Positions 2,092-64,000 of a stretch of DNA of 64,000 bases are shown here, piece by piece; position 1 is the stretch's first letter; each line of letters opens with the position of its first letter. Position numbers and translations under genes: made by a program. The notes below the pieces were generated by a model that was given only the letters and a program-made list of their open reading frames with translations, searched no databases and was not told the origin of the DNA. The stretch is taken from positions 1,474,607 to 1,538,606 of the forward strand of contig CP070837.1 of NCBI GenBank assembly GCA_020341815.1. The letters run 5' to 3'. Origin of the DNA: Candidatus Omnitrophota bacterium (lineage in GTDB: Bacteria; Omnitrophota; Gorgyraeia; JAFGHF01).

Positions 2092-2101
2092 GAGCTGACC
2101 A

Positions 2102-31712: not shown

Positions 31713-33428
31713 ATGAATATACTTCTCGTAAATTTGCCATCGTTATCCTTTTCGTTATTGGACGAATCGCTAAGAAATAAAGAGGTTCTGGAAAGTCCGG
31801 TAATATTGCAAATGCCATTAAGCTTGCTTTATCTTTCCTCTTATGCGCGCAGATATGCCAAGCGGGATTTTAACTTGAAACTGCTTGATATTAATAAAGA
31901 GGTTTTTGAGATATTCAAGGAAAGAAAGATGTCGCTTGAGCCCCGGACTAATGAAGGGATACGTGAACGATTTAATTCCATCGTTTCTCAGGCAGTATCG
32001 GACTTCCGGCCGTCTATTGTGGGCATTAATATATTATATGCAACATCCCAGAATACGGGTATTTTTGTCTCTGGAGTATTCCGAAAACTATGTCCCGAGG
32101 CATATATTATAGGCGGCGGGATCCAGGCCACCAATACCTATCGGGAGATATTAAATAAAGGAAGTTTCGATGCCATCGTCCGCGGCGAAGGCGAGATACC
32201 TTTTACCGAATTGATTGATAGCTATAGACCGGAAAAGAAAGAATACCCGATTAGGGGTATCGTAAACCGGATAGACCTTAAGGGAAACAGCAATGACACA
32301 AAAGCAGAGATGGTCGAGGAGTTAGATGAAATTCCTTTTCCAGCCTGGGATTTGCTGGAAGGTCTCGATGACTATATAACTCAGCCAGTTCGCATAAAAG
32401 CCTTATTAGATAATTCTATAAGAGCAATGCCCATTCTTACGACTCGGGGATGCCCGAAGAGATGTTCTTTCTGTGCCTCGCATACGGTGCACGGCCGCAA
32501 AATCAGATCGAGGTCTTTAGAAAATATCTATGAGGAAATTGAAACTATGATTGCAAAGTTTCACATCAATACATTATTTATCGAAGACGACCTTTTTACA
32601 TATGACAGGCAAAGAACCGTAGATTTTTGCCGGGAAGCCATAAAAAGAAATTGGAACTTAAGAATTGAGTTTCCCAATGGGGTTGCGATTTGGACTTTGG
32701 ATGAAGTTTCGATCGATAGCTTAATAAAAGCAGGGACAAAGGTTATTAATATAGCAGTAGAATCCGGCAGTCCCTATGTCCAAAAGCAGATTATTAGGAA
32801 AAATCTTAACCTGGACCATGTCCGCCGAGTGGCGGAGATTATTTCCCGCTATCCCGATATTGAAAGCAGGTCTTTATATGTTATTGGCTTTCCCGGTGAG
32901 CGACAGGAGCATATCGAGCAGACAATGAAGTTTGCCAGATCAATGCCTTGCGACTGGAGTGTTTTTCACATAGCAATGCCGGTGCCCGGCAGCGATCTTT
33001 TTGAGGAATATCTGTCGTTAGGCTACATCAGTCGAGACAGCAATTTCGATGATTTCTGCAAAACATACCTAAACAGGAATTTTGACACTAAGGAATTTTC
33101 TAAGGAAGAAATGGAGGAAATACAAAGCGACTTAAACATAAAAATAAATTTTCTATCAAACAGGAATATCCTAAGGGGGAATTACAAAAAGGCCCTTTCT
33201 CTCTTTCAAAAGATTATCGAGGATTATCCCTTTCATGTCATAGCAAGATATTGCCTATGGAACTGTTTGAGAGCCTTAAAGATGCATAAAGAGGCACAAG
33301 AAGAATTAAACTCCATTTTTTACTGGATTAAAAACGATGAAAAATCTCAAAGGCTTTACGATAAATACAAGTCACTTTTAGAAATACCGGAAGATCTCCT
33401 CAATGCTAAAGATGGATCTAATCTATGA
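31713..33428 (+). CDS. B12-binding (class B) radical SAM enzyme
   Basis: The N-terminal cobalamin-binding module includes VSGVFRKLCPEAYIIGGGIQAT. The radical SAM motif is TRGCPKRCSFCASH. Confidence 0.8.
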   Translation: MNILLVNLPSLSFSLLDESLRNKEVLESPVILQMPLSLLYLSSYARRYAKRDFNLKLLDINKEVFEIFKERKMSLEPRTNEGIRERFNSIVSQAVSDFRPSIVGINILYATSQNTGIFVSGVFRKLCPEAYIIGGGIQATNTYREILNKGSFDAIVRGEGEIPFTELIDSYRPEKKEYPIRGIVNRIDLKGNSNDTKAEMVEELDEIPFPAWDLLEGLDDYITQPVRIKALLDNSIRAMPILTTRGCPKRCSFCASHTVHGRKIRSRSLENIYEEIETMIAKFHINTLFIEDDLFTYDRQRTVDFCREAIKRNWNLRIEFPNGVAIWTLDEVSIDSLIKAGTKVINIAVESGSPYVQKQIIRKNLNLDHVRRVAEIISRYPDIESRSLYVIGFPGERQEHIEQTMKFARSMPCDWSVFHIAMPVPGSDLFEEYLSLGYISRDSNFDDFCKTYLNRNFDTKEFSKEEMEEIQSDLNIKINFLSNRNILRGNYKKALSLFQKIIEDYPFHVIARYCLWNCLRALKMHKEAQEELNSIFYWIKNDEKSQRLYDKYKSLLEIPEDLLNAKDGSNL

Positions 33429-35278
33429 ACATCGCCATTATTGAATATAAAGAGAATATTGTAGAGGCCCTCAAATATTTTCAACCGGAGAATACCCTTT
33501 TTCTGTCTGTAAGCGGCGAGGCGAGTTACTGTTTATCAAAACGAAATATCGATTTTATTACCGATGAGGAAAGGTTGAACCCGGAAGAATTTAAGGCCAT
33601 TGGCGATGAAAACTGCAAAATCTTGGAAAATTGGATTCAACGGCTTGAAGAAAGGTTACAATCAAAAAATTCATTATTTAAAAAGAAGCATTTTTTCCCT
33701 TTTAAGTGGCACTTTTATCGGCTGAAGATATTGCTGGATGCGGTAAGAATAAGAAAAATATTGATAGAGAGGCTGATCGAAAAAGAAAAGCCGTTATCGA
33801 TTGGCGCGCCTCCGGGTGCCGTGCCCCAGAGGATACACGACCACAATCTCTTTTTTCATAAATACGACTCTCTTTATGGAATATTGACGCAAAAGATTGC
33901 TGCTGAAAAAGGAATAGAAATCAAGGTATGGGCAAAGGTTGAGCCCGCCACTAAAAAGCCTCCTGTCGTTGAGGGAATAAAAGCCTCTTTAAGAACATTA
34001 CGGAAGGCCTTAAGAGTAGTATTGGAATCTAACGATTTACTTAAGCATAAGAGAATAAGGGGTAATATCTTGCTCGGTAATCTCTGCTACGATATTGCGC
34101 CACTAAGACAAAAACTCCTGGATAAGTTCAATTTCTATTATTATAAAGACCCTTTATGTATCAGGTCTTTGAGTTCTCTTCTAAAATTGAAACCAAAGAC
34201 GTCGGGTTGTGAGTTTCCCGAGATTGATATTAAAGGTATCTTTAAAGGCCTCCCGGCGACAGGGGATTCGATTGTGGATGAGATTTTAGGCGATAGAATA
34301 GAGAGTTATGCAGAAAGTTTTATTCCTGTTTTATGGAAAGGATTGAATTATTTAGAATCCTTAGATGACCGAAAAGATTTTAAGGCATATATTCATCATG
34401 TTGGAGCATCCGATGCATTTTACGGCCTTCCGGTATATTATTTTGAACGAAAAAAGAAGCCCGTTGTTATTGTTCAGCACGGGACATATGGATTTGTTTT
34501 AAATCAAAATAATAATTTTTGCGAATTCGGCCATAACGGATATTTCCTTGCCTGGGGCGAGGGCGTAAAGGAAGTATATGATGAGCGTAAAAAGGGTAGT
34601 TGTAAAATTATTTCTACGGGTTCGCCTTTGATTGAAGAGATTAAGAAAAAGAGTAAACCGCGAAGGACCATATCTAAAATCTGCTATATCCCCGGCACCT
34701 ACAGAGGTTACACTGCTTATTATCCAAATGGCCAGCCTTGCCTGGACTCAAAGATATTTATTGTGGAAACCAATTTCCTATCGGCTTTGAGGCCTTACGT
34801 AGGAAGATATGACATAATCTATAAAGTAGCCCCTTGGGCCGTCAAAGAATCTGGCGTCTTTGGGAGAAACCCGATGCTTATGTGGATGAGAGAAAATCTG
34901 CCCACGGTAAGAATAGAATCGCGTCCTCTTACATCTGTAATTCACGAATTTGACTTTTTCATTATTGATTTTCCCTCAACCACGCTTATTCAGGCCCTGG
35001 CATCAGGCGCAGAGGTCTTGGTCTATGCTGGAAATCGATGCTATACTTTAGAGGATAATACTCTTGAAATGCTGAGAAAAAGAGCCGTAGTAGCTTGTAA
35101 CGAAGATGACTTCAAAGATAAGATAAAATTGATTTTGGATAAAGGTATAGTGACCTCGAATGTGAAAGATGCTTCTTTTTTGGAAAAATACGGCATACAC
35201 CTTAATAATGGCGAATCCTTAAAGCGCATGGCAGATGAAGTTAATGCTTCCGTGTCGAATCTGAGGATGAACGCATAG
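33425..35278 (+). CDS. Large uncharacterised protein (617 aa), possible GT-B-fold glycosyl/nonulosonate transferase or capsule-polysaccharide-biosynthesis-family protein
   Basis: It has no canonical motifs. The C-terminal region (VIVQHGTYGF...FFIIDFPSTTLIQALASGAEVLVYAG) resembles the second Rossmann domain of GT-B enzymes. It is one of three similar-sized unknowns in the locus. Confidence 0.3.
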   Translation: MNIAIIEYKENIVEALKYFQPENTLFLSVSGEASYCLSKRNIDFITDEERLNPEEFKAIGDENCKILENWIQRLEERLQSKNSLFKKKHFFPFKWHFYRLKILLDAVRIRKILIERLIEKEKPLSIGAPPGAVPQRIHDHNLFFHKYDSLYGILTQKIAAEKGIEIKVWAKVEPATKKPPVVEGIKASLRTLRKALRVVLESNDLLKHKRIRGNILLGNLCYDIAPLRQKLLDKFNFYYYKDPLCIRSLSSLLKLKPKTSGCEFPEIDIKGIFKGLPATGDSIVDEILGDRIESYAESFIPVLWKGLNYLESLDDRKDFKAYIHHVGASDAFYGLPVYYFERKKKPVVIVQHGTYGFVLNQNNNFCEFGHNGYFLAWGEGVKEVYDERKKGSCKIISTGSPLIEEIKKKSKPRRTISKICYIPGTYRGYTAYYPNGQPCLDSKIFIVETNFLSALRPYVGRYDIIYKVAPWAVKESGVFGRNPMLMWMRENLPTVRIESRPLTSVIHEFDFFIIDFPSTTLIQALASGAEVLVYAGNRCYTLEDNTLEMLRKRAVVACNEDDFKDKIKLILDKGIVTSNVKDASFLEKYGIHLNNGESLKRMADEVNASVSNLRMNA

Positions 35279-35285
35279 AAAGCTT

Positions 35286-37145
35286 ATGTTAGATACCGAG
35301 AAAGAATATATTGCAGTATTTGGAGAAGATATATTGGATGGCCTCTGCCTCATTTTATGGGGGTGGCTTAGGAATATAAAAATGATAGTTATTTCTTCGC
35401 CTATGCCTTCCCGCATAACGGATATTTTTAAACGCACGTCCTTCATTAGAAAATATATGAAGAAATCGATTAAAGAGCATAAGAGGGGTTTGGGTAATTA
35501 TAAGGGGCTATGGTATAAGGTAAATGAGGAAGTCATAGATTTGACACTAAGATTTTATGATTGGCGCCTAAAACATAAAAGTAATCTTATTAGTTATTAT
35601 AATAGAGTTCTAACTACCGATAAATTTGAGGCTTATATCAAAAGAAATCTTGCAAATCAAATATTTGCCTTATTGAAATATTTACATCTTGCGAGAATAT
35701 CAAACATTAAGCAAAACAAAATTTTAATAAATAGAAATCCTATTAATGAGTTCGTTGTTGGGTACTTCCAGGATAAATATAAAATTAAATATCAAATAAG
35801 GTGGATTTCATCCGGCTGGCGGGCGTTTGCTTTAGGGGCATATTACGGGTGGCTGTTTAAGCAATGTATCTACAGGGGAATCGTTTTTAATAAAGATAGA
35901 AAAGAATATAAGATATCCAAAGAGGCTGCCTGGGGTTTTTACCAGCCGACATTAAGAGACGATATATTAATAGATAATGATAAATTTAAAAAGAGCGATA
36001 TTTTGATATTAAACTTTAATACAGAACACTCTCCGCGCCTTGAGGCCTTTGAAGAAGCAAAGAAAAGAGGCTTTGCCACCGCTTCCGTTGAAAAGTTGAA
36101 AATCAATATAAACAAAAATATTTTTAGCATCCTGTTCTTCTATCTTTGGGTTCCCGTTAACGTCTATTTTCAATTGCTTTTAAGCAGACAATTATACCTT
36201 TTCTATTACATAATTATGTTTCATAAAGGAGCTTTTCCTGTTGAAATATTAATGAACTCTTATCACATTAAGTGCCACATCTCGGTTATTACTTATGACG
36301 ATATTGCAACAACGATTATTTTAAACAAATACAGGACGAAAAATGTAATTTTTCATTGGAGCGATATGACTTGTTATAAAGGCTATGGATATGCTTTTAT
36401 CGCGCATAATATCTATTTTACCTGGGGTAATATTCATTATGATTATCACGCCGATTATTATTTTGTGGATAAGAAAATCAATACTGGCTGTATATTTAAG
36501 AGAGAATATAATAAGACAGTAGAAAATAGAGAAAGGACAATTAAACGTTTACCCGGTTTTAAAGAAGAAAAGAAGACCGTTATATTCTTTGATTCATCTT
36601 TTAATAATGCCTTCCGTTTTACCGAAGAATTCTTTTTAGAATATTTAGAAATCATAAAAGAATTTTGTAAAAAGAATAAGGATGTTAATGTATTTTTGAA
36701 GCCAAAATCTGAGATGGATAAGTTAAGAATATCCCAGGATAACTACAGTCGATATAAAAAAATATGGAATGAACTTATAAGTTGTGAAAGTTTTATCTAT
36801 CTGAATCCGATAGAATGGAGCGTTGAACAGGCCCTCTCTATATCGGATATTTGCATAAATATGGGAATGAACAGCCCTTCTACGATAGCATTGATATTCG
36901 GTAAAGACGCCCTTTATTACGATAATACAGGCATTACGTCTCATCCCTTTGCTGAAAAGTATATGAATAAAATAGTATTTGAAGATAAAAACCGGCTCTT
37001 TGCGCAGATAAATAACATCTTAAATGGAAGCTTCAGTTGCAAAGATGTTATCAGCGAAGGAGAAATTAGAGAATACGATGCGTTCGAAGATGATGAGGCC
37101 ATGGAAAGGCTAAGGAGCGGTTTATCCGAATTATCAACCGATTAA
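35286..37145 (+). CDS. Large uncharacterised protein (619 aa), possible GT-B-fold transferase (paralogous role to 33425..35278?)
   Basis: It is extremely AT-rich. The C-terminus (SISDICINMGMNSPSTIALIFGKDALYY) is similar in pattern to its neighbour. One internal hydrophobic segment is present. Confidence 0.3.
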   Translation: MLDTEKEYIAVFGEDILDGLCLILWGWLRNIKMIVISSPMPSRITDIFKRTSFIRKYMKKSIKEHKRGLGNYKGLWYKVNEEVIDLTLRFYDWRLKHKSNLISYYNRVLTTDKFEAYIKRNLANQIFALLKYLHLARISNIKQNKILINRNPINEFVVGYFQDKYKIKYQIRWISSGWRAFALGAYYGWLFKQCIYRGIVFNKDRKEYKISKEAAWGFYQPTLRDDILIDNDKFKKSDILILNFNTEHSPRLEAFEEAKKRGFATASVEKLKININKNIFSILFFYLWVPVNVYFQLLLSRQLYLFYYIIMFHKGAFPVEILMNSYHIKCHISVITYDDIATTIILNKYRTKNVIFHWSDMTCYKGYGYAFIAHNIYFTWGNIHYDYHADYYFVDKKINTGCIFKREYNKTVENRERTIKRLPGFKEEKKTVIFFDSSFNNAFRFTEEFFLEYLEIIKEFCKKNKDVNVFLKPKSEMDKLRISQDNYSRYKKIWNELISCESFIYLNPIEWSVEQALSISDICINMGMNSPSTIALIFGKDALYYDNTGITSHPFAEKYMNKIVFEDKNRLFAQINNILNGSFSCKDVISEGEIREYDAFEDDEAMERLRSGLSELSTD

Positions 37146-46327: not shown

Positions 46328-47227
46328 ATGAAAAAGGTATTGGTTACGGGTTATATCAGAAGTGGCACGACCTTATTAGCCAATTTCTTGAATTCTCAAA
46401 AAGGATGTCTGGTATACAGAGATTTCTTGGGAGAGACTTTAATCTCTTCTGATAAGTTAGGAATAAAATCCTTTTTGACCGAATTAACTGACCGACAAAA
46501 AAATATTTTTCTTTCTGAATTGAAAGCTAGATCTTGTGCTATTGGGTGCGAGGCCATGAATGGATTGAGCAAAGATTTTTCCAATTTAAAAGAGTTACAC
46601 GAGAGGGCACTTTCTGCTCTGAACAAAAAAAACGCTTATAAAATTGTAGGCACCAAAGTAACCCGCTTGGGAGAAAAGCTTACGACTTTAATCAAGGAAA
46701 CGGATCTCCATGTAATATATATCTACCGTGATACAAGAGACGTTTTATTGTCGGCTAAAAATAGGTTTGTCGGATTTAATCTTATAGAACTTATATTGGG
46801 TTTACGGAAGGATTTAAAAAGCGCATTAAGCATAGAAAGTAAAAAATTGCTTAAATTAAAATTTGAAGATTTAATTTTAAATACGGATTCAATAGTAAAA
46901 CAACTGGCTGATTTTTTAGATGTTGATATCTCAAAAGATATAAGAATAGCAAAAGACAGAGAAACAAATTGGGTAAACAATTCCTCTTTCCATGATATCG
47001 ATCAGTTATTCGATAAGAAAGCTTGCTTTAGGTGGAAGAATCATAGAGATAGCAAAGAGGTAAAATATTGTGAAATCTTGATGGGCGATTTAATACAAAA
47101 AATAGGATATGATATAGATATGAAAAGTTATAGGATTTCAGATAAGTTGTCGGCTTACAAAGATTTGTATATTCGCAGGACTAAAGAAGTTATAAAACAT
47201 TTTTATCGTCATGTTACAAAAGGTTAA
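46328..47227 (+). CDS. Sulfotransferase-family protein (PAPS-dependent)
   Basis: VLVTGYIRSGTTLLANFL matches the sulfotransferase 5'-phosphosulfate-binding loop (P/xRSGTTLL). The roughly 300-aa length is typical of bacterial carbohydrate sulfotransferases. Confidence 0.6.
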   Translation: MKKVLVTGYIRSGTTLLANFLNSQKGCLVYRDFLGETLISSDKLGIKSFLTELTDRQKNIFLSELKARSCAIGCEAMNGLSKDFSNLKELHERALSALNKKNAYKIVGTKVTRLGEKLTTLIKETDLHVIYIYRDTRDVLLSAKNRFVGFNLIELILGLRKDLKSALSIESKKLLKLKFEDLILNTDSIVKQLADFLDVDISKDIRIAKDRETNWVNNSSFHDIDQLFDKKACFRWKNHRDSKEVKYCEILMGDLIQKIGYDIDMKSYRISDKLSAYKDLYIRRTKEVIKHFYRHVTKG

Positions 47228-47258
47228 TTTCATTATGTTAGAAAAGGTCAATTTCATT
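47211..47258 (+). repeat. 24-bp imperfect tandem duplication (2 copies, 22/24 identical) spanning the sulfotransferase stop and ABC-transporter start
   Basis: The two copies are atgttacaaaaggttaatttcatt and atgttagaaaaggtcaatttcatt. They produce the peptide MLQKVNFI-MLEKVNFI if translated from the first ATG. Confidence 0.8.
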
Positions 47259-49046
47259 TTGACAAGGAATGAGAAGAAGAAATTGATAATTCTTTTTATC
47301 GGCATATTACTTTTGGCGATATTGGAGACATTCAGTATCGGCATTATTATTCCCATAATGGATTTGTTTATCAATCAAGAGAAGATTCAAACCTCCAAAG
47401 TGCTTGGATGGTTTTATCAATTAATAGGGGCCAAAAATAATATCGGTTTTCTAACCGTTTTGGTAATAACTGCTATTCTTTTATTCGTTTTCAAGTCATT
47501 GTATACTGTTTTTATACAATATAAGCAAAGAAGAGTCGTAAACAATATTAATGTTCGTGTAACAACCGGACTTTTAGCTTCATATTTAAATAGGCCATAT
47601 TCGTTTCATTTAGAAAATAATAGTACAATATTGTTTAGGAATGTAGATAATACGGTAGCTCATTTTTCTACCAGTTTTCTACTGTCATTAATATTCATAA
47701 GTACCGATATAGTTATCCTTCTGGCAATTTCTTCTTTACTTTTTTACCTCTATCCCCTTGTAACACTAATATTAGCGAGCGTTCTTACGACGGTTATGAT
47801 GTTTATAAACAATTTTTTTAAAAAAAGAGTTATAATATATGCTTCGAACAGAATGGAGGCTTCAGGAAAAGTGCATAAGTTTGGATTTGAAGCACTCCAC
47901 GCAATTAAGGAAATTAAAGCATACAATGTGCAAGATTTCTTTATCAAAAGATACGCTCAAGCGGCAGCGAAGCGTCTTGATAACGGGGTAAAATTTATCG
48001 TTTCTAACATTTTGCCTCGTTATACATTAGAGATAATATTATGGACCAGTGTACTTACAACGTTATTAATGAGCATATATTTTGGTAAAAATCCTTCTGA
48101 ATTAATTCCTATAATGACCGTATTCGGGTTGGCAGCATTGAGAGTTTTACCATCCATTGACAAGATATATAAGAATGTTAATACTGTTAGATTTTATTCT
48201 AATAGCCTTGATGTTGTTTATCAGACTTTGAAAGAACATAGCCAAGAAAAGATATTAGAAAAAGTTGTTCCCAGGGACATCAAAATAGTCAGTACACCTC
48301 AAGAATCTCAGGCCATTCATTTAGAAAACATTGAATTTCGTTATCAAAAAGCACCGGCTCCTATCTTTAAAGAATTTAATCTTGTAATCCCCGAGCATAA
48401 GATTATTGCTTTTGCAGGTGCGACCGGAGCAGGAAAAAGTACTCTAATAGATATTTTAATGGGATTATTAATTCCCGCAAATGGCGCTTTATATTATAGA
48501 GGAGAGATTGTTACTCCTGAGAATGTTTTGGCCTACCGTCGAAAAATAAGTTATGTTCCTCAACATATCTTTCTTGCCGATGATACTCTGGAGGCAAATA
48601 TTGCCTTTGGCATTCCTCAGGACAAGTTCGACAGTGAGCAGTTGAAGCATGTCATTCAGATTGTGCAACTGGAGTCCTTAATTAATGATTTGCCGAAAGG
48701 AATTAAAACAATAGTGGGTGAAAAAGGCGTCAGGCTTTCTGGCGGCCAAAGACAGCGGTTGGCTATTGCCCGAGCGCTTTATCGCAATCCGGAAATCCTG
48801 ATTATGGATGAGGCTACCTCGGCACTCGATGGATATACAGAAGCCGAACTTAACAAAGCTATTAAAAATCTTTATGGAAATGGAAGACTGACGATAATTC
48901 TTATTGCTCACCGTCTGAGCACTATTGAGGGCGCCGATGTAATTTATGTAATGGAGCAGGGCAAAATCGTTGCTCAGGGCAGTTATCGGGAGCTGTTGGA
49001 AAATTCTACCACATTTAAGAAAATAGCAAACCAAATAACAGCTTAA
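47211..49046 (+). CDS. ABC transporter, fused permease+ATPase (type I exporter; MsbA/PglK/Wzk-like lipid-linked-glycan flippase candidate)
   Basis: Six N-terminal TM helices are followed by Walker A (GATGAGKST), the ABC signature (LSGGQRQRLAIARAL) and Walker B (ILIMDEATSALD). The start is ambiguous between 47211 and 47235 because of a 24-bp tandem duplication. Confidence 0.9.
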   Translation: MLQKVNFIMLEKVNFILTRNEKKKLIILFIGILLLAILETFSIGIIIPIMDLFINQEKIQTSKVLGWFYQLIGAKNNIGFLTVLVITAILLFVFKSLYTVFIQYKQRRVVNNINVRVTTGLLASYLNRPYSFHLENNSTILFRNVDNTVAHFSTSFLLSLIFISTDIVILLAISSLLFYLYPLVTLILASVLTTVMMFINNFFKKRVIIYASNRMEASGKVHKFGFEALHAIKEIKAYNVQDFFIKRYAQAAAKRLDNGVKFIVSNILPRYTLEIILWTSVLTTLLMSIYFGKNPSELIPIMTVFGLAALRVLPSIDKIYKNVNTVRFYSNSLDVVYQTLKEHSQEKILEKVVPRDIKIVSTPQESQAIHLENIEFRYQKAPAPIFKEFNLVIPEHKIIAFAGATGAGKSTLIDILMGLLIPANGALYYRGEIVTPENVLAYRRKISYVPQHIFLADDTLEANIAFGIPQDKFDSEQLKHVIQIVQLESLINDLPKGIKTIVGEKGVRLSGGQRQRLAIARALYRNPEILIMDEATSALDGYTEAELNKAIKNLYGNGRLTIILIAHRLSTIEGADVIYVMEQGKIVAQGSYRELLENSTTFKKIANQITA

Positions 49047-55070: not shown

Positions 55071-55967
55071 ATGAAGATAATTGTTTTTGGTGGATCAGGA
55101 TTTATTGGTAGCCATGTGGCGGATATATTAACTGAAAGCGGACATGAAGTTAGAATTTTTGATTTGGAACCTTCGCCTTACTTTAAAGCGAATCAAGAAA
55201 TGATTACAGGAGATATTTTGGATGAACAGAAGGTAAACAAGGCTGTTGAGGATTGCGATTATATTTACCATTTTGCAGGTATAGCGGACCTTGACGATGC
55301 CAGGACCAAATCCTTAGAGACAGTAACTCAAAATATAAAAGGAACGGCAGTTTTACTTGGAGCAGCTCGTCGCATAAGAGCGAAAAGATTTGTTTTTGCC
55401 AGCACCGTTTATGTTTATAGCGACAGAGGAGGCTTCTACCGTTGCAGTAAACAGGCAGCAGAACTCTATGTGGAAGAATACCAGAGGCATTACGGCTTAG
55501 ATTACACTATATTACGCTACGGCAGTGTTTATGGACCGCGCGCCGACCATCGCAATAGTGTCTATAAATATTTAAAACAGGCCATGGAAGAAGGGAAGAT
55601 TGAAATTTGCGCTAACGGTGAAGAAATGAGAGAATACATTCATGTAAGAGATGCTGCGCGTTTGAGCGTAGAGGCGCTTTCAGAAAAACATAGGAATCAG
55701 CATATAATTATTACAGGGCACCACCCGATGAAATTTAGAGATTTTCTATATACAATAAAAGAAATCCTGGGTAATAAAGTTAAAATCGAATTTAAAGAAG
55801 TTATTCCAAACTCTCCGCATTATAACTTAACTCCTTATTCCTTTATTCCAAAAATCGGCTATAAGCTTACCGCAAATCATTACTTAGATATGGGGCAGGG
55901 ATTGCTGGAATGTATAGATGAGATCCATTCTTTCAATCAAATAAAAGAGGCTGTAAAAAATGCTTAA
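55071..55967 (+). CDS. NAD-dependent nucleotide-sugar epimerase/dehydratase (extended SDR)
   Basis: The Rossmann motif is MKIIVFGGSGFIGSHVADIL and the catalytic motif is YRCSKQAAE (YxxxK). A GGAGG sequence lies 10 nt upstream of the ATG at 55071, so I prefer this start over the ORF-track start at 55038. Confidence 0.8.
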   Translation: MKIIVFGGSGFIGSHVADILTESGHEVRIFDLEPSPYFKANQEMITGDILDEQKVNKAVEDCDYIYHFAGIADLDDARTKSLETVTQNIKGTAVLLGAARRIRAKRFVFASTVYVYSDRGGFYRCSKQAAELYVEEYQRHYGLDYTILRYGSVYGPRADHRNSVYKYLKQAMEEGKIEICANGEEMREYIHVRDAARLSVEALSEKHRNQHIIITGHHPMKFRDFLYTIKEILGNKVKIEFKEVIPNSPHYNLTPYSFIPKIGYKLTANHYLDMGQGLLECIDEIHSFNQIKEAVKNA

Positions 55968-57966
55968 CGCTGCACTTTATGTATTTGACCGCATGCCTAA
56001 CGTGAGAAGGCTTATCCGATATTCTGATGAGAAAAATATCGACAAAATATTTCTCTGCCCTGTGACGGCCAATCAAGATACGACCTCTTTAATCGTTAAA
56101 CATTTTTCTTCAATAAAAAATCGTAAAATTGAAGTCATTCCATATTTAGAACATTTTAATAGACAGGCCTTTTTGGAACGCGATAATTTTATTCATTTCA
56201 TTTCTGAGTTTGGCGAAAAGCCAAGGTTCGGCGAGATTAACTTTAAAAAATACTTTAAATATCCGTTCAGTTCATTTTCCGTATGGTGGTCTTCCCTGAT
56301 ATTTGAAAAAAACCCTCTAAAAAGCGATGTGTACCATAGTTTAGTTCAATTACTTACTATACTAAAACTAAAGAAAGAATATAAATGCAAACAGCTAATA
56401 CTCGATATTGGATCGAAAGATTTATCCTGCACAATAATGCAGGATAGCATAAATAGGCAATACCATTGTATCGATTTCAAAAAATATAGAGTGCATTCAC
56501 AAATTGTTACTTTTTCAGTAAATTTCTTAAAGGGAATAAAACATTATTTTTATTTCATATATAAGATTTTTATTGTGACTGTTCATGCCAGGGGCTTAGG
56601 CTTTAGAAAAGAGATTTTAAGAAACGCCAGGTATCTCGCTATCAGTTACTTCCCTTTAATTGACAGAGAGTCTTTAAAACAAGAGAAGTTTGTTAATAAA
56701 TATTATGGCGCGCTGCAAACAGCGCTGGAAAATAAGTATAAAGACAGATTTATCTGGCTGGCAGTGTCACCCGGCATCGATGGTTTTAGTTTTCGGGATA
56801 GCGTTAAGCTGGGAAGACAGATAAATACCTGGAAATACCCGATTTATTTCCTGGAAGAATGGGTTAGCCCGAAGGACCTGCTTGTGATTATGGCCCATTA
56901 CGTTTATTTCATGATTAAGTGCATTATAAAGGTACCCTATCTTTCAAAAAGCTTCGAGTATTCTAAAGAAAGTATAAATGTCTGGAACATTTTTAAACAA
57001 GATTGGTTTTCTTCATTCGCCGGCGGAGCTTTAATGAGCAACATCTTTTATTTTAAGGCTTTTAGGAATATTTCTAATAAACTTAAATCCGGGACAGTTG
57101 TTACATACCTTGCCGAAAGTCAGCCCTGGGAAAGAACGTTAAATTTTACCCTCCATGATCAGAATAGGAATCTGAAAACCGTCGGGATAGTACATACTAC
57201 GATTCCACTATTGCTGTTACAGTTTTTCGATTCTAAAGATGATTTGCAATGGGATGAGCGCTCGAAATTTACTATGCCCAAACCGGATTATTTAGCATGT
57301 AACGGCAGGATTCCATTAGAAGTTTTTCAGGAAACAGGCTGGAGTAAAAAAAGAGCTTTTTTATGGTTCGCTATACGCTATCAGCATCTCAAAAAACATC
57401 TGCAAAAGAGGATTCCCTGGCAGAGCCGACAGAATAAAATCTTAGTCGCATTAGCGTTTAGCACCAAAGAAGCAAAGGAGTTATTATATTATATTCATCA
57501 AGCCTTCAGCGGACAGACAGATTACCAAATAATCATAAAAGGGCACTACCATGGGCTTCCCGTGCAAACTCTGATTAAGCGCTTGAATTTAGATTTTAAT
57601 AAAAATACCTTTATTTTTTCAAATGAAGAGCTGGATAGGCTTTTGCCTTTGGTAAAGGCGATGATCGTAGCCAGCTCTTCGGTTGCTTTGGAAAGCATCA
57701 CTTTCGGATGCCCGGTTATTATTCCCAGATTATCCGGCGTAATCGATATGAATCCACTTTCAGAAATTAGCGATTTGCCACTTTACGCACAAAGCCCTGA
57801 AAGGTTACGCGGCTTAGTAGATGATATCCTAACGCGAAGAGAATCCCCGGTAAATTATGAAAAATGTAAGAATTTTGTCGAGAATTACTTCGAATTCCCT
57901 GATTCCGAACACGAATTGATAGAAAAGATAGAAAGCTGTTTTGCAGCTGCCGGAAAGATGCTATGA
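55960..57966 (+). CDS. Large uncharacterised protein (668 aa), GT-B-like C-terminus; candidate glycosyl/nonulosonate transferase or capsule-biosynthesis-family protein
   Basis: The C-terminus (ILVALAFSTKEAKELLYYI...LLPLVKAMIVASSSVALESITFGCPVIIP) resembles a GT-B second Rossmann domain. The N-terminal two-thirds have no known motif and are very AT-rich. Confidence 0.3.
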   Translation: MLNAALYVFDRMPNVRRLIRYSDEKNIDKIFLCPVTANQDTTSLIVKHFSSIKNRKIEVIPYLEHFNRQAFLERDNFIHFISEFGEKPRFGEINFKKYFKYPFSSFSVWWSSLIFEKNPLKSDVYHSLVQLLTILKLKKEYKCKQLILDIGSKDLSCTIMQDSINRQYHCIDFKKYRVHSQIVTFSVNFLKGIKHYFYFIYKIFIVTVHARGLGFRKEILRNARYLAISYFPLIDRESLKQEKFVNKYYGALQTALENKYKDRFIWLAVSPGIDGFSFRDSVKLGRQINTWKYPIYFLEEWVSPKDLLVIMAHYVYFMIKCIIKVPYLSKSFEYSKESINVWNIFKQDWFSSFAGGALMSNIFYFKAFRNISNKLKSGTVVTYLAESQPWERTLNFTLHDQNRNLKTVGIVHTTIPLLLLQFFDSKDDLQWDERSKFTMPKPDYLACNGRIPLEVFQETGWSKKRAFLWFAIRYQHLKKHLQKRIPWQSRQNKILVALAFSTKEAKELLYYIHQAFSGQTDYQIIIKGHYHGLPVQTLIKRLNLDFNKNTFIFSNEELDRLLPLVKAMIVASSSVALESITFGCPVIIPRLSGVIDMNPLSEISDLPLYAQSPERLRGLVDDILTRRESPVNYEKCKNFVENYFEFPDSEHELIEKIESCFAAAGKML

Positions 57967-58889: not shown

Positions 58890-60734
58890 ATGCTTAAAAA
58901 CGAAAATATAATATGTATTTCATCGATTGACTGGGATTTCAACTGGCAGGGGCATCAGGAGATAATGTCTACTTTCGCCAGGAATAACAACAGGGTCTTA
59001 TTTATAGAAAATACAGGCGTACGAGTACCTACCCTGAAGGACCTTCCCCGATTAAAAAAACGACTGAGCAATTGGCTTAAAGGGATAAGTGGAATAAGGA
59101 AAGAAGAAGAGAATCTGTTTGTATTTTCGCCGCTGGTAATCCCATTTCCTTACTCCAGGATAGCCAGATGGATTAACAGGTATTTGTTGCTTTCAACCTT
59201 GAAGAAGTGGATTAAGGTAATGGACTTTAATGACCCGATTATCTGGACATTTTTACCCACAGGCATAAGTCTGGATTTAATCGCTAACATAGACAAAAAG
59301 ATGTCGGTATATTACTGCATTGCCGAATTTACAAAACTGGTCAGAGACTCCCGGAAGATAAGAAGGACTGAAAAAGAGCTGCTGAAAAAGGCCGATCTAA
59401 TCTTTGCGCAGGGTGAGAAACTTAAACAATGGTGCGAAAGTTATAATTCCAATGTGACCATTTTCCCATTCGGGGTTAACTCCGAGGCCTTCCATAATAC
59501 AACTTTGGACGGCAAGGAAAGCCTTCCCGATTTAAAGGGCATAAAAAGGCCGATTATCGGTTATATAGGAGGATTGCATAAACATATAGATTATGAGCTG
59601 ATAGAGTGTTTGGCCGCGAGGAATCCTCATTGGTCCTTTCTTTTTGTCGGCCCCGTGCAGACAGATGTCGCCAGAATTGGAAGGCTTGACAATGTCTTTC
59701 TCGTTGGAGAGAAAAAACACTTCGATTTGCCAAAATATATAGGTGCATTTGATGTATGCCTGATTCCTTATCTTTTGACCGACTATACCTCCACCGTTTA
59801 TCCCACAAAATTGAACGAATATCTCATTATGGGAAAGCCCGTGCTTTCCACAGACTTGCCGGAGGTTAGAGCTTTTAATCAGAAATATGGAAATGTGCTT
59901 ATGATCGGGCAAACCACGGACGAGTTCAAGGCTTATATAACTGAAGTATTGGAAAAAAACGACAAAGATATGGTTGGCAAAAGGATTAAGGCTGCGCAGG
60001 AAAACAGCTGGAAAAAAAGAATCGAACAAATGAGTAATTTGATTGAAGAGGAGATTGAAAGGAAGAAACATGATAAAGACCTAAGGTGGAAGGAAGGCTT
60101 GCGTAAGTTTTACAGGCAGTCCCGCAGAAGCTTAAAGGCCACGGCTTTCGCCTGTTTGCTGGCCTATCTCTTATTATTCTATACGCCATTCTTATGGTTT
60201 GCGGCCAGGCCTTTAAAAATATCCGAACCTCTTCAGGCAGCTAATGCTATTGTAGTTTTTGGAGGCGGAGTTGGCGAAGGTGGCAGCCCCGGTAAAAGCA
60301 CTATTGAAAGAGCCCGGTATGCCGGCGAATTGTATAAAAGCGGATATGCCAATCATATTATTTTTTCGTCAGGTTATAGTTTTAAATATAACGATGCAGA
60401 AAATATGAAGCTCGTTGCTCTTTCAGCCGGCGTTGCCGAGAAAGATATAATTTTAGAACAGAAGGCAAATAGTACTTATGAAAATGCCAGGTTTACAGGA
60501 GAGATAATAAATGATTACGGCTGGAGCTCAATTTTATTAGTTAGTTCTCCTTACAATATGCGCAGGGCATCGTTGGCGTTTAAAAAACTAAATAAGAACT
60601 TAAAGATTACTTATGCGCCGATAAGCAATCCTCAATTTTATAGACGTGACGGAAAGGTAAAATGGGAGCAAATCAGAGCTATAGGACATGAATATTTAGG
60701 GATTTTGTATTATTTTATTAAAGGATATATTTGA
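58890..60734 (+). CDS. Fusion protein: GT-B glycosyltransferase (GT4/group-1-like) – transmembrane helix – DUF218 (YdcF/ElyC-like) domain
   Basis: Residues about 1–390 have a GT4-like C-terminal motif (VCLIPYLLTDYTSTVYPTKLNEYLIMGKPVLSTDLPEVRAF). A hydrophobic segment (ATAFACLLAYLLLFYTPFLWFAA) follows. The C-terminal roughly 170 aa (ANAIVVFGGGVGEGG...ANSTYENARF...SILLVSSPYNMRRASLAF) match the DUF218 pattern. Confidence 0.65.
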   Translation: MLKNENIICISSIDWDFNWQGHQEIMSTFARNNNRVLFIENTGVRVPTLKDLPRLKKRLSNWLKGISGIRKEEENLFVFSPLVIPFPYSRIARWINRYLLLSTLKKWIKVMDFNDPIIWTFLPTGISLDLIANIDKKMSVYYCIAEFTKLVRDSRKIRRTEKELLKKADLIFAQGEKLKQWCESYNSNVTIFPFGVNSEAFHNTTLDGKESLPDLKGIKRPIIGYIGGLHKHIDYELIECLAARNPHWSFLFVGPVQTDVARIGRLDNVFLVGEKKHFDLPKYIGAFDVCLIPYLLTDYTSTVYPTKLNEYLIMGKPVLSTDLPEVRAFNQKYGNVLMIGQTTDEFKAYITEVLEKNDKDMVGKRIKAAQENSWKKRIEQMSNLIEEEIERKKHDKDLRWKEGLRKFYRQSRRSLKATAFACLLAYLLLFYTPFLWFAARPLKISEPLQAANAIVVFGGGVGEGGSPGKSTIERARYAGELYKSGYANHIIFSSGYSFKYNDAENMKLVALSAGVAEKDIILEQKANSTYENARFTGEIINDYGWSSILLVSSPYNMRRASLAFKKLNKNLKITYAPISNPQFYRRDGKVKWEQIRAIGHEYLGILYYFIKGYI

Positions 60735-60738
60735 AATC

Positions 60739-62976
60739 ATGAGAATAGCGCTAATATTTCCACCTTATACACATAAGATATTTTCGGAGAACCTGGCTGT
60801 TGTAGATGAGGAATTTTGTGTTGCCCCGCCTATAATTTTGGCCTATGTAGCTGCTATTCTTGAGGCGCATGGGCATAAGGTAATGCTGCTCGATGCTAAG
60901 GTATTGAGTTTGTCAAAGGAGGAGGCGCTTGAGAGAATAAGGGCCTTTAAACCGGACATTTTAGGGTTTAGAGCGGAGACTTATCACTTTCATGATGCCT
61001 TGGATTGGGTGCGTTATCTAAAACACAGACTTAATGTTCCTGTCGTTGCCGGGGGTCTTAATCTATCCATGTATCCTAAAGAAACCCTTTCTCATAGCGA
61101 GATAGATTACGGAATCGTTGGGGAGGCGATAGAATCATTACCAAGGCTGGTTTCTGCGTTAGAATATGGAGACAGCGTAAGTGAGATACCCGGTGTCATA
61201 CATAGAAATAAAGAGAAAGGAGATGTTATTATTAATTCACCGGCAGAAAAATATGTAGATTTCGATTCTTATCCGTTTCCTGCCCGGCATCTTTTGCCAA
61301 ACGAAAAATACTATTCCTTCATATCACAACGCAAGAATTTTACGGTTATGGTTACGGCTACGGGATGCCCCTTCAAATGTAATTTTTGCGCTATTCCACA
61401 TCTCTATCGGCCGCGTTCGGTCAAAAATGTTATTGATGAGATTGAAGCCTGCTACCGCGACTTTAACGTAAGAGAGATAGACTTTTTTGACCCGGTATTA
61501 TTTATAAATAAAAACAGGGCACTGGAATTATTTCATGAGATTAAAAAGCGTAAACTAGATATAGAATGGTCTTGCCGTTCGAGGGTTGATGCGGTTGATA
61601 ATGAAATATTGCGGGAGGCCGCAGGCGCGGGATGCAGGCAGATATATTATGGAATAGAGTCGGTAGACCCCCAAATATTGCATACTATAAAAAAAGAGAT
61701 AGGTCCGGCACAAGTCAAGCAGGCGATTAAATGGTCAAAGAGATACGGCATAAGGGCAATGGGCTTCTTTATGGTAGGCAATCAGGGAGAGACAAAAGAA
61801 AGTGTGCGGCGCACAATCGGATTTGCCAAGGATTTGGGGTTAGAATTCATCCAGGTCTGCAGGACAATCGCAAAGCCCGGAACAAATCTTGATAAGATTA
61901 TGATAGAAAAAAGCGGAAAGGACTACTGGAGGGAGCATGTCTCGGGAAAAAAGATAGAAGGACGTCTTCCTACTTCCTGGTCTACCTTGTCGGAGCCGGA
62001 AATAGAAGCGCTTACAAAGGAGTTTTATCTGAAGTTTTACTTTCGTCCAAAAATTATATGGAGCAGGGTTCTTCAGCTTAAATCTATAAGTGAACTCACC
62101 AGATATATAAAAGTAGCATGGAGGATGCTTTTACAAAAATCAGAGCTATATTCCCGCGTCCTTACCGATACCTCTGAGGCAGAAGGGTTCCTGGCCCAGA
62201 GCGATAGCTATTTATCGCAGGCTAAAGAGTGCAGAGTAGCAGTCGTCATTCCGACTTACAATGAGAAAGATAATATAGAGGGAATAATCACTACTATTTT
62301 GGATATTTTGCCTAATGCTTATATTGTTGTAGTTGATGACAAATCACCTGATGGAACAGGGGATATCGTTCGAAATATTGCCGATAGAGACAAGCGCATA
62401 CATTTTATCAGTCGCAGCGGAGAGAAGGGCTTGGGATTGGCATATATTACGGGATTTAAATATGTGCTGGAGAGCTTACCGGTAGATTACATCTTTGAGA
62501 TGGATGCGGATTTTTCGCATAATCCCAGGTATCTTCCGATATTTTTAGAATATGCAAAAGAATGTGATTTGATTATAGGTTCCCGTTTCTTGAGGAGAGT
62601 GAGTATAAAAAATAGAGCCCGCTGGCGCAATATTATATCGATAACCAGCAAATGGTTTATAAATGCGCTCATTGGAACTCGCCTCACAGATATGACTACA
62701 GGCTTTAAGTGTTTTCAAAAAAAGGTCTTGGCAGCTATAGAATTGGACAAAATGCACTCTAAGGGGTATGCCTTTCAAATTGAAATGTCATTTTTGGCGA
62801 AAAGCAGGGGATTTAGCATTAAGGAATTGCCTATTTTGTTTATAGAAAGAAGTAAAGGCTATTCTAAATTGTCTTTAAAAATTATCTTCGAAGGTTTTTT
62901 CTTAATCTGGAGACTGGCAATCAAGAGATTATTGGGATTTGAAGTTAAAGATGGACAAAATATATATAGAAAATAG
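60739..62976 (+). CDS. Fusion protein: B12-binding radical SAM enzyme (N-terminal ~470 aa) + GT2 polyprenyl-phosphate glycosyltransferase (DPM1/ArnC-like, C-terminal ~250 aa)
   Basis: The N-terminus shows PVVAGGLNLS (B12 module) and TATGCPFKCNFCAI (CxxxCxxC). The C-terminus shows VAVVIPTYNEKDNIEGII...IVVVDDKSPDGTGDI...KGLGLAY...EMDADFSHNP, the classic dolichol/undecaprenol-phosphate glycosyltransferase signature. Confidence 0.8.
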   Translation: MRIALIFPPYTHKIFSENLAVVDEEFCVAPPIILAYVAAILEAHGHKVMLLDAKVLSLSKEEALERIRAFKPDILGFRAETYHFHDALDWVRYLKHRLNVPVVAGGLNLSMYPKETLSHSEIDYGIVGEAIESLPRLVSALEYGDSVSEIPGVIHRNKEKGDVIINSPAEKYVDFDSYPFPARHLLPNEKYYSFISQRKNFTVMVTATGCPFKCNFCAIPHLYRPRSVKNVIDEIEACYRDFNVREIDFFDPVLFINKNRALELFHEIKKRKLDIEWSCRSRVDAVDNEILREAAGAGCRQIYYGIESVDPQILHTIKKEIGPAQVKQAIKWSKRYGIRAMGFFMVGNQGETKESVRRTIGFAKDLGLEFIQVCRTIAKPGTNLDKIMIEKSGKDYWREHVSGKKIEGRLPTSWSTLSEPEIEALTKEFYLKFYFRPKIIWSRVLQLKSISELTRYIKVAWRMLLQKSELYSRVLTDTSEAEGFLAQSDSYLSQAKECRVAVVIPTYNEKDNIEGIITTILDILPNAYIVVVDDKSPDGTGDIVRNIADRDKRIHFISRSGEKGLGLAYITGFKYVLESLPVDYIFEMDADFSHNPRYLPIFLEYAKECDLIIGSRFLRRVSIKNRARWRNIISITSKWFINALIGTRLTDMTTGFKCFQKKVLAAIELDKMHSKGYAFQIEMSFLAKSRGFSIKELPILFIERSKGYSKLSLKIIFEGFFLIWRLAIKRLLGFEVKDGQNIYRK

Positions 62977-63619
62977 AGATAAAAGCTACATAAATAGATA
63001 TAAGCTTTCCCGCAGGATGAGACAGATATTGTCGGCCATACAAAACTATAAGCCGGGTGAGGGACTTTCTCTCTTGGAAATAGGCGCTGCCGATGGCATT
63101 CTATTGGAATTTTTGCATAGAAATCTAAATTTAGGTAAAGCCATTGGCATTGAGCCTTCACTGGAATGTATTCAAGTTGGCAAACATAAAAGCGTAAAAT
63201 TGGTTCAGGCAATCGGCGAAAGATTGCCTTTCAGAAAGGACTGTTTTGACATTATAGTAGCGGCTTCGGTGATAGACCACTTAACTGATGTAAATATGTT
63301 TTTGAATGAGGCGCACAGAGTGTTGAAGTCAAACGGCATCCTGGTTCTGACTGCTGTTGTGCCTTTCTATGATAGATTGGCTAATATAACGGGGCTTGAC
63401 AAAGGACTGCACTCCCATGTCCAGACTTTTAATACGCCGGAACTAAAGAATTTATTAGAGGAGAATCAATTTAAGACTTTACTGGCTGAAAGGTTTGCGC
63501 TTCCGAGTTTTGGGCTTTTGCCCTTTGAAAACGCAATAGAGCATATATTGAAAAAATTACGCCTGGGCTTTATAATGTTTTATTCTTTAATTGTAGCGGA
63601 AAATAATTCAGGTAATTAA
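62939..63619 (+). CDS. Class I SAM-dependent methyltransferase (Methyltransf_11-like)
   Basis: Motif I is LLEIGAADGILLEFL, followed by ...GIEPS..., and the motif IV region is FDIIVAASVIDHLTD. The start may be the Met at 62951, since the gene overlaps the upstream gene. Confidence 0.7.
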   Translation: MKLKMDKIYIENRDKSYINRYKLSRRMRQILSAIQNYKPGEGLSLLEIGAADGILLEFLHRNLNLGKAIGIEPSLECIQVGKHKSVKLVQAIGERLPFRKDCFDIIVAASVIDHLTDVNMFLNEAHRVLKSNGILVLTAVVPFYDRLANITGLDKGLHSHVQTFNTPELKNLLEENQFKTLLAERFALPSFGLLPFENAIEHILKKLRLGFIMFYSLIVAENNSGN

Positions 63620-63626
63620 CGGTGAT

Positions 63627-64000
63627 ATGAAAACAACCGACCTAATTAAAGATGTTTTGCTGGTATATTTAAGCCAGGAGCATTCAGATTATTTGATTTC
63701 AGAGAGGCTTGACTATGGGATGAAACGGGTTCCCAAACTGGGCTTTATGTACCTTGCCGCAGTCCTTGGAGAAAAAGGCGTGCATGCTCACATAATGGAT
63801 CAGGAGTTGCAACCTTTTACATTTGAGGATTTAGCCGGGAGGTTGCAAAAAGAGAAGTTCGGATTTATCGGATTCTATTCAACTACGGCGATAAAATCAA
63901 AACTTTTACGCTACATAAAAAGACTTAGACTGTCGAATATCGATATTCCGATAATCGTGGGAGGCCCGGGTTATTTTGCCGCCCAAGAATATCTTGAAGC
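63627..64000 (+). CDS. N-terminal fragment (3' end off-window) of another B12-binding radical SAM-type protein
   Basis: The ATG at 63627 opens a frame that runs without a stop to the window end. LVYLSQEH...GFMYLAAVLGEKGVHAHIMD...IGFYSTT...PIIVGGPGYFA is the cobalamin-binding Rossmann-like module seen in the other class-B enzymes here. Confidence 0.5.
   Translation, partial: MKTTDLIKDVLLVYLSQEHSDYLISERLDYGMKRVPKLGFMYLAAVLGEKGVHAHIMDQELQPFTFEDLAGRLQKEKFGFIGFYSTTAIKSKLLRYIKRLRLSNIDIPIIVGGPGYFAAQEYLE

Follow-up and report, generated by a model that had tools for sequence, protein, structure and literature searches.

Why should a radical S-adenosylmethionine (SAM) enzyme and a glycosyltransferase with the motifs of the polyprenyl-phosphate sugar synthases be made as one polypeptide? 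The question is raised by an open reading frame (ORF) near the end of a 64,000-nucleotide stretch of a Candidatus Omnitrophota genome (contig CP070837.1, positions 1,474,607 to 1,538,606 of the forward strand), which was analysed as a whole and is referred to here as the window. The ORF extends uninterrupted from an ATG start at window position 60739 to position 62976 on the plus strand, as do all the window features given below, and encodes 745 amino acids (aa). An earlier description of the same DNA (the original prediction) had read the product as a fusion of a B12-binding radical SAM enzyme and a family 2 glycosyltransferase (GT2), on which a lipid-linked monosaccharide would be both made and modified. 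The results presented here lead us to regard it as probable that the protein is a bifunctional peripheral-membrane enzyme that makes and radically tailors a lipid-linked sugar for a surface glycoconjugate.

The fusion is a single gene with three domains

Pfam annotation of the ORF returned three domains, in the order that had been anticipated: B12-binding, Radical_SAM and Glycos_transf_2. The B12-binding (Rossmann-like) domain (PF02310) covers aa 29-137 (60823-61149; E 1e-18, 67.8 bits against a cutoff of 32.1) and is followed by the radical SAM core (PF04055) at aa 205-362 (61351-61824; E 2e-20, 74 bits) and by a helical extension at aa 363-470 (61825-62148), the latter delimited by alignment to HpnJ, AprD4 and stand-alone orthologues. 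The match to PF00535 (aa 502-664, E 2e-25, 89.8 bits against a cutoff of 23.3) lies within a GT2 domain of GT-A fold and polyisoprenyl-phosphate glycosyltransferase (PI-GT) type, which according to Pfam, structure matching and alignments spans aa 498-735 (62230-62943). The two halves are joined by a hinge or linker at about aa 466-497 (62134-62229), recognised from a dip in model confidence and as the least conserved stretch of both alignments. The same ORF contains the motifs TATGCPFKCNFCAI (aa 206-219), VIPTYNE (aa 502-508), VVDDKSPDGT (aa 531-540) and MDADFSH (aa 588-594). Three domain matches with E values of 1e-18 or lower in a single 745-aa ORF, in DNA of about 40% GC, are far beyond what chance would produce.

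An ORF of this kind could also arise from a frameshift, or from a sequencing or assembly error joining adjacent genes, and the sole related oddity that could be cited in favour of this is a triple fusion (P0002, see below) known from one contig. However, the linker is continuous, and inspection of the junction DNA showed no homopolymer run and stops throughout both alternative frames. A 1.55-Mb contig at NCBI carries the identical protein under the name 'MAG: glycosyltransferase [Candidatus Omnitrophota bacterium]', and the identical gene is present in an independent Logan assembly. When the same architecture was sought in databases, all three Pfam domains were found in one protein of about 730-760 aa in 84 of the 120 best clusters defined at 90% identity; these fused clusters, 42-77% identical to the query, come from four sources (NCBI, JGI, ENA and Logan), where such proteins are named merely 'glycosyltransferase' or 'radical SAM protein'. 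An AlphaFold 2 (AF2) model built with the family alignment as input folded both halves confidently in one chain (mean predicted local distance difference test score, pLDDT, of 90.2), with low confidence at about aa 461-480 of the hinge and pLDDT below 50 at aa 469-472. The probability of an artefact is thus next to nil, and the fusion is a genuine single gene.

The glycosyltransferase half resembles polyisoprenyl-phosphate glycosyltransferases

The best matches of the C-terminal half are the three solved PI-GT families, namely dolichol-phosphate mannose synthase (DPMS), ArnC and GtrB. DPMS was the top match in the PDB by sequence (4e-27), and the Pyrococcus furiosus enzyme (5mlz) the top match by structure, with a root-mean-square deviation of 2.3 Å over 244 columns and 31% identity, followed by ArnC and GtrB. 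Enzymes of this type are characterised by a DXD motif for the metal and the nucleotide diphosphate, basic residues for the acceptor phosphate (R122 and R200 in GtrB), one or more transmembrane (TM) segments and two amphipathic juxtamembrane helices (PMC4728340). The first of these corresponds in the fusion to D589-A-D591 (62503-62511), which is aligned with the DAD of DPMS, ArnC and GtrB (D94xD96 in the latter). The invariant R616, in a GSR motif, is placed directly opposite GtrB R122, which is a ligand of the acceptor phosphate (PMC4728340). A further motif, ER..G.SK (R704, G707, S709, K710), is common to the fusion, DPMS and ArnC, and its arginine could be the counterpart of GtrB R200, at a position that lies beyond the end of the GtrB alignment. 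Invariant in the 81 fusions compared are P505, E509, D589, D591, S593, H594, R616, D651 and R704. D651 is aligned with the aspartate of the DPMS motif 'KDPVSGF', and GtrB D157, the putative catalytic acid, falls opposite G655 in the phmmer alignment, in a loop where that alignment is unreliable. At the place of the third metal ligand, Gln93 in DPMS numbering, the fusion has Ser593.

Two helices predicted in the model, at aa 628-645 and aa 713-731, occupy the positions of juxtamembrane helices; the second (62875-62931, from DSSP assignment of the model) is a putative amphipathic helix at the C-terminus, and the alignment with DPMS reaches aa 726. A hydropathy scan detected no genuine TM segment in the fusion, its single hit (aa 26-44) being inside the Rossmann-fold B12-binding domain. 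In human DPMS the TM part of the catalytic subunit is supplied by other chains (PMC4728340), and it is possible that a partner chain plays the same role here, for instance the Wzy_C protein encoded next to the closest relative of the fusion, in locus L076. Assignment as a PpgS, AglJ or ArnC equivalog was rejected, since all NCBIfam scores were below cutoff (57.6 against 370 in the case of PpgS). On sequence and model, then, this half is best placed at the level of PI-GTs, which agrees with the polyprenyl-phosphate sugar synthase type that had been proposed for it.

The radical SAM half is related to HpnJ and AprD4 but lies outside named families

The CxxxCxxC motif of the N-terminal half (C210, C214 and C217; 61366-61389), which in class B enzymes serves the [4Fe-4S] cluster and SAM within a partial TIM barrel, is invariant in the 81 fusions and in all 87 family members compared. 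This motif and the DXD motif of the GT2 are both intact, and the invariance of catalytic residues in fusions that are only 42-77% identical indicates that both halves are under purifying selection. In the PDB the top match of this half was AprD4 both by sequence (6FD2, 6e-26) and by structure (E 6e-25, with a template modelling score of 0.76 over the whole AprD4 chain), and MgmA, TsrM, TokK, OxsB and CysS, of the class-B type, were further fold matches, likewise aligned over their whole length. Among NCBIfam models the highest score was that of HpnJ (TIGR03471), at 168 bits against a cutoff of 577.6, with fusion aa 31-458 aligned end to end to positions 34-458 of the 472 of the model. BchE (TIGR02026; 136.7 bits against 481.35) and the ladderane radical SAM, BzaD and P-methylase models were close behind, and the AprD4 family (NF033070) reached 107.8 bits against a cutoff of 500. 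Membership in any of these was discarded, because every score is far below its curated cutoff, which places the N-terminal half outside every named family. Its size, around 470 aa, is that of the stand-alone orthologues, HpnJ and AprD4.

Comparison of 45 orthologues, fused and solo, with 42 paralogues revealed residues particular to the former. A loop at aa 8-27, inserted after strand 1 of the B12-like domain and ahead of the Pfam B12-binding match, has F15, E17, N18, L19, D23 and F26 invariant in the orthologues and is gapped in the paralogues. Polar or cationic residues found only in orthologues are E17, N18, R183, S193, S196, N200, R280, N348, Q372, K379 and R409, a set that fits a sugar-phosphate substrate. 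Since these signature residues are common to fused and solo members, they suggest one conserved chemistry on a polar and probably anionic substrate, whether a GT2 is attached or not. In the same alignment no convincing second cysteine motif of the auxiliary-cluster kind was found in this half; of its additional cysteines, C238 occurs in the orthologues only, C299 occurs generally, and position 374 has either cysteine or serine. This half probably uses cobalamin.

The proximity to HpnJ brings in a different explanation, in which the GT2 half would glycosylate another membrane lipid, or the polyprenyl-phosphate sugar would itself be the end product, and the radical SAM half would remodel the sugar ring, for example by contraction to a cyclitol, as has been proposed for HpnJ and Cds, so that the product would be a structural membrane lipid instead of a glycosyl donor. 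HpnJ is, as stated, the best NCBIfam match and aligns end to end. Besides, HpnI (a GT2), HpnK (a deacetylase) and HpnJ (a radical SAM enzyme of B12 architecture) catalyse successive steps on a lipid-anchored sugar, from hopanoid glucosamine to a cyclitol ether (PMC13459092), and this triad is mirrored in loci L006, L010 and L011, where a Polysacc_deac_1 gene is found beside GT2 and radical SAM. One subclade of fusions (L013-L015 and L038), moreover, has no transferase or flippase nearby. Nevertheless, 168 bits is far under the HpnJ cutoff, with the BchE, ladderane and BzaD models scoring nearly as high; the 57 ORFs annotated in the window include no squalene-hopene cyclase, hpn-type or other lipid-synthesis gene; the GT2 half matches specifically those PI-GTs that act on a phosphate acceptor, including the arginine that corresponds to R122 of GtrB; and the presence, in most loci, of a flippase-like gene and of Wzy_C or PMT_2 nearby suggests that the product is handed on. 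We consider head-group remodelling of this kind unlikely.

Fused and separate genes

The fused gene is present in at least 20 species-representative genomes, mostly of Omnitrophota and Elusimicrobiota, and also in one bin of the Planctomycetes-Verrucomicrobia-Chlamydiae (PVC) group and in bins labelled Planctomycetia or Desulfobacterales. The two halves also occur as neighbouring separate genes: in L029 the radical SAM gene precedes the GT2 gene with an ATGA (4-nt) overlap, in L028 the order is the opposite, again with a 4-nt overlap, and L036 (with the label Nanohalarchaeota) and L047 have the GT2 orthologue no more than 2 kb from the radical SAM gene. The finding of the same pair as translationally coupled genes in both orders is a classic signature of consecutive steps or of a complex. 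A solo GT2 orthologue (P0224, 51% identity) was also identified, and the full-length query, with both its halves, has matches in 87,062 proteins at E ≤ 1e-3.

In a tree of the radical SAM domain, a quick neighbour-joining distance tree without support values that leaves the number of events uncertain, fused and solo genes interleave. Solo L003 is sister to fused L018 and L031 to fused L002, L019 is nested in a fused Omnitrophota clade, and L028 and L029 fall between two fused clades. A single origin of the fusion is not compatible with this interleaving, given the lack of support in the tree as a caveat, and the link between radical SAM and GT2 appears to have been gained or lost repeatedly. 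A comparison of L003 and L022 with L017 illustrates the point, since most neighbour clusters are common to them (c4 GT2, c17 DUF362, c18, the anchor, two c1 radical SAM genes and AsnB), while the GT2 domain is fused to the anchor in L017 and is cleanly missing in L003. Many orthologues of the radical SAM half have a GT2 neither joined to them nor in their vicinity, so that the coupling is facultative.

These facts bear on a further alternative, according to which the radical SAM half would act on a different substrate of the pathway, which could be the polyprenyl chain, an intermediate of nonulosonic-acid synthesis, or a peptide or glycan acceptor, and the fusion would merely co-localise or co-regulate two enzymes that serve a single surface-glycan programme at the membrane. 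This would be in line with the stand-alone nature of most orthologues of the radical SAM half, often paired with a radical SAM/SPASM-like protein of about 330 aa (c1), with the repeated fusion and fission, and with the many other radical SAM genes of the window that lie amid enzymes for soluble sugar nucleotides. However, the recurrence of the pair as coupled separate genes in both orders would be harder to explain, the signature residues are polar or cationic, not the hydrophobic ones that a hydrocarbon substrate would lead one to expect, and the catalytic residues of both halves are kept in all 81 fusions. In our opinion separate substrates represent a minor possibility that deserves to be kept in view.

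Some of the relatives deserve separate mention. P0002 (L076, 9976-12855; 959 aa), from the locus of the closest relative, is a triple fusion of B12-radical SAM, GT2 and class I methyltransferase, known from one contig in which a local frameshift is possible. Its methyltransferase domain was discarded as an orthologue of the one encoded downstream of the fusion in the window (27% identity over 108 aa, E 0.002), the two having only their superfamily in common. Some close homologues carry odd taxon labels, such as Lokiarchaeia for P0004 (76% identity), and Desulfobacterales, Patescibacteria, Planctomycetia, Methanosarcinales, Nanohalarchaeota and Woesearchaeota over L010, L029, L006/L007/L038, L030, L036 and L037; these could result either from mis-binning or from horizontal transfer among ultra-small or episymbiotic lineages. 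Five other proteins (P0210, P0240, P0256, P0223 and P0267), of 926-2633 aa and with two or three matches each to the B12-radical SAM half, are apparently tandem multi-radical-SAM polypeptides, and may have to do with the giant proteins reported as a phenotype of Omnitrophota (bioRxiv 10.64898/2026.06.07.730766).

A proposed function for the fusion protein

The bifunctional enzyme that we favour would work as follows. At the cytoplasmic face of the membrane, the GT2 half, TM-less and of the DPM1/PpgS/ArnC/GtrB type, would transfer a monosaccharide from a nucleoside diphosphate (NDP) sugar to polyprenyl phosphate. The radical SAM half, by means of a 5'-deoxyadenosyl radical derived from SAM at its [4Fe-4S] cluster, probably together with cobalamin, would tailor the sugar handled by the GT2 half, most likely once it is linked to the lipid phosphate or, alternatively, while it is still a nucleotide sugar about to be transferred. 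Additional changes to the product might come from the SAM methyltransferases encoded nearby and, in part of the genomes, from a deacetylase of the ArnD family, LPG_synthase_TM, which is flippase-like, could carry the product across the membrane, and a polytopic transferase (of Wzy_C type or a PMT_2 GT-C enzyme) would attach the sugar to a surface glycoconjugate. The whole would be a periplasmic glycosylation system of three components with radical chemistry incorporated, of which we infer the lipid acceptor, the sharing of one substrate by both domains, the order of the steps, the pathway and the final acceptor.

Regarding the reaction of the radical SAM half, the original prediction had put forward C-methylation as an example, and the data at hand make it only one option among several, as the closest characterised relatives, HpnJ and AprD4, are non-methylating and their scores are far below cutoff. 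Provided that the bifunctional model is correct, C-methylation would be a strong contender, short of an even chance, given that it is the commonest class-B reaction and has precedents on sugars in GenK and GenD1; a non-methylating rearrangement, dehydration or epimerisation like those of HpnJ, AprD4 or OxsB would be a slightly weaker contender, and other reactions would account for the remainder. One particular combination, a rearrangement of HpnJ or Cds type on a polyprenyl-phosphate-linked (amino)sugar, whose ring might for instance contract to a carbocyclic aminocyclitol, is a long shot. If true, a lipid-linked cyclitol or skeleton-rearranged donor would be flipped and installed on the surface, a building block and a reaction on a glycosyl carrier lipid that have never been described.

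Several observations weigh against the bifunctional proposal. For every family member, it rests on sequences and models. The model of the fusion gives no sign of communication between the active sites, with a predicted template modelling score of 0.69 and a floppy hinge. When 50%-identity representatives are considered, the 150 best include only two fusions (P0062 and P0097), against more than 140 solo radical SAM proteins of about 470 aa; no DPM-like GT2 gene was found within 10 kb of the solo genes L003, L019 and L031, nested among fused ones, which indicates that the radical SAM enzyme needs no GT2 in cis and might have its own substrate. The fused subclade L013, L014, L015 and L038 is located amid unrelated genes, in a conserved setting without glycan genes, in the order ACT-domain protein, fusion, two PilT-like ATPases and pyruvate:ferredoxin oxidoreductase (PFOR), and its flanks contain no flippase or membrane transferase. 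AprD4, the nearest solved relative, is cobalamin-independent. Finally, Wzy_C enzymes classically take donors linked to undecaprenyl diphosphate and not to undecaprenyl phosphate, which weakens the analogy with three-component systems.

Gene neighbourhood of the fusion

In the window the local order is GT2, GT1-DUF218, the fusion and a methyltransferase gene that overlaps its end. The GT1-DUF218 gene (58890-60734, cluster c9), whose product is a GT1 domain (TuaH-like, 119 bits) fused to DUF218, ends 4 nt upstream of the fusion, and has homologues in seven fused loci, including the window, as well as in L076. The overlapping gene (62939-63619, with an internal ATG at 62951; cluster c5) encodes a class I SAM methyltransferase according to Pfam, and its homologues occur in eight fused loci, again including the window. 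It is followed by a second, paralogous B12-radical SAM gene (472 aa; L001 3126-4544) that starts at 63627 and runs past the end of the window at 64000, and beyond it on the source contig by another methyltransferase gene (L001 4554-5204) and a flippase-like LPG_synthase_TM gene (5222-5884).

An unbiased clustering of neighbours in more than 70 loci showed that the commonest partner of the radical SAM orthologues overall is the c1 protein mentioned above. In the subclade of the window, the recurrent partners are methyltransferases (c5, c14 and c48), LPG_synthase_TM (c10), Wzy_C (c7), GT1-DUF218 (c9) and an ArnD-family deacetylase (Polysacc_deac_1, c29). These neighbours are in keeping with the proposed pathway, in which a lipid-linked sugar would be made, tailored, flipped and transferred; for LPG_synthase_TM, Wzy_C and PMT_2 the functions are read from the family names. 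Loci L006, L010, L011, L012 and L028 contain LPG_synthase_TM, as does the source contig downstream of the fusion. Wzy_C is present in ten loci, and in L076 its gene overlaps the stop codon of the triple fusion by 4 nt.

Two PMT_2 (GT-C) membrane glycosyltransferases with 8-12 TM-like segments each are encoded at 421-3430 of the window (PF13231), and these had originally been proposed as the users of the lipid-linked product. That link did not hold up as a conserved feature: the genes are 57 kb away from the fusion, and PMT_2 is only occasional in the loci compared (the window, L005, L008, L017 and, weakly, L029 directly after the split GT2), where Wzy_C is commoner. The proteins may still be users of a polyprenyl-phosphate sugar.

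The window as a surface-glycan island

The 64 kb constitute one surface-glycan island with all genes on the plus strand, comprising DegT aminotransferases, dehydratases, a PglD-like acetyltransferase, several glycosyltransferases and at least 11 radical SAM genes. The window annotation also includes three NeuB paralogues (at 30668, 39904 and 43220) and three CTP_transf_3 genes of the cytidine monophosphate (CMP)-transferase type (17510, 45524 and 49071). At least five of the radical SAM genes are of the B12 type (3437, 14134, 31713, 60739 and 63627 onward), and five others start at 7062, 20528, 27286, 29569 and 49815. Such a density of radical enzymes is unusually high for a nonulosonic-acid cluster. 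One MbnB/TglH/ChrH-like (DUF692) protein is encoded at 28815-29579, between a radical SAM gene (27286-28815) and a radical SAM-SPASM gene (29569-30633), so that enzymes of the type that matures ribosomally synthesised and post-translationally modified peptides (RiPPs) lie inside a sugar cluster (27286-30633). In the middle of the island, a sulfotransferase gene followed by one for an ATP-binding cassette (ABC) exporter with fused transmembrane and nucleotide-binding domains (46328-49046) hints at a sulfated, ABC-exported glycan. Three large ORFs, 33425-35278, 35286-37145 and 55960-57966 (617, 619 and 668 aa), gave no Pfam match and have at most one hydrophobic segment each; an ORF of 661 aa in L076 (1969-3954), also without Pfam match, occupies the same syntenic position as the last of them.

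Significance of the fusion

The superfamily of class B radical SAM enzymes is very large, and most of its substrates have yet to be assigned. Fusion to a PI-GT acts as a Rosetta stone, pointing to a monosaccharide linked, or about to be linked, to a carrier lipid as the likely class of substrate for the whole orthologous group, and provides a self-contained protein for in vitro reconstitution and a handle on a large family of orphan radical enzymes. If the proposed function is correct, surface glycosylation would gain its first example of tailoring by a radical SAM enzyme at the stage of the polyprenyl-phosphate sugar, and the three-component paradigm of Gtr and Arn type would be extended. This would also help to explain the chemically exotic glycans implied by the glycan islands rich in radical SAM genes that Omnitrophota and Elusimicrobiota possess. 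These bacteria are ultra-small and for the most part uncultured, and it is probably through their surfaces that they attach to hosts or partners.

Comparison with known systems

The glycosyltransferase half has its counterparts in P. furiosus DPMS, human DPM1, GtrB, ArnC, PpgS and AglJ, with which it shares the GT-A fold of GT2 enzymes, the DAD motif, the arginine aligned with GtrB R122, the ER..G.SK motif and, according to the model, predicted internal and C-terminal helices at juxtamembrane positions. Its lack of TM helices in cis is a trait of human DPM1 (PMC4728340), whereas its location behind a radical SAM enzyme of 470 aa sets it apart from all of them.

For the radical SAM half, the closest precedents in terms of substrate are genetic and correspond to the remodelling of lipid-anchored sugars by HpnJ and Cds (PMC13459092). 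HpnJ, the top NCBIfam match and of the same length, is a putative ring-contraction enzyme acting on lipid-linked glucosamine, with a chemistry known from genetics alone (PMC13459092). In contrast with the fusion, HpnI, HpnK and HpnJ are separate proteins, their acceptor is bacteriohopanetetrol and not polyprenyl phosphate, and a hopanoid context was not found in the window. The calditol synthase Cds of Sulfolobus, also a radical SAM enzyme, acts on a hexose that a membrane lipid already carries, and remodels it (PMC13459092); likened here by description only, it differs in being archaeal, in having a glycerol dialkyl glycerol tetraether (GDGT) lipid as substrate and in the absence of a fused glycosyltransferase. 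AprD4, the best solved match in sequence and fold, is a radical SAM 1,2-diol dehydratase of apramycin biosynthesis, according to its PDB title, and has an amino sugar as substrate, but it is a soluble, stand-alone enzyme of an antibiotic pathway with about 20% identity.

Cobalamin-dependent radical SAM C-methylation of unactivated sp3 carbons of sugars is carried out by GenK and GenD1 (PMC4340712). These enzymes and the class B methylases TsrM, TokK, CysS and MgmA have, like the fusion, a B12 domain and a radical SAM domain, and the GenK and GenD1 pathways resemble the fusion locus in having class I N- or O-methyltransferases alongside. The substrates of these methylases are soluble aminoglycosides, peptides or small molecules; unlike the fusion, they have no glycosyltransferase attached, and their identities with the N-terminal half (15-21%) reveal no specific sequence affinity.

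As systems, GtrA/GtrB/GtrV, ArnC/ArnD/ArnEF/ArnT and CsbB/GtcA/YfhO offer the nearest parallel, with a PI-GT, carrier-lipid tailoring, a flippase candidate and a polytopic transferase, for which some of the fusion loci encode putative counterparts. The differences concern the flippase candidate, which is of LPG_synthase_TM type and not of GtrA or ArnEF type, the commonest membrane partner, which is of Wzy_C type and not a classic GT-C enzyme, and the radical SAM chemistry that the fusion loci add, physically joined to the first enzyme. The original prediction was aware of no characterised example, and our literature searches, with subscription-only papers outside their scope, likewise found no published account of the radical SAM-PI-GT architecture. 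Both domain families are well established, and tailoring of a sugar on its carrier lipid is already known from ArnD and DprE1/2. What is new here is the physical union of the two, a radical SAM enzyme of the class-B type fused to a PI-GT.

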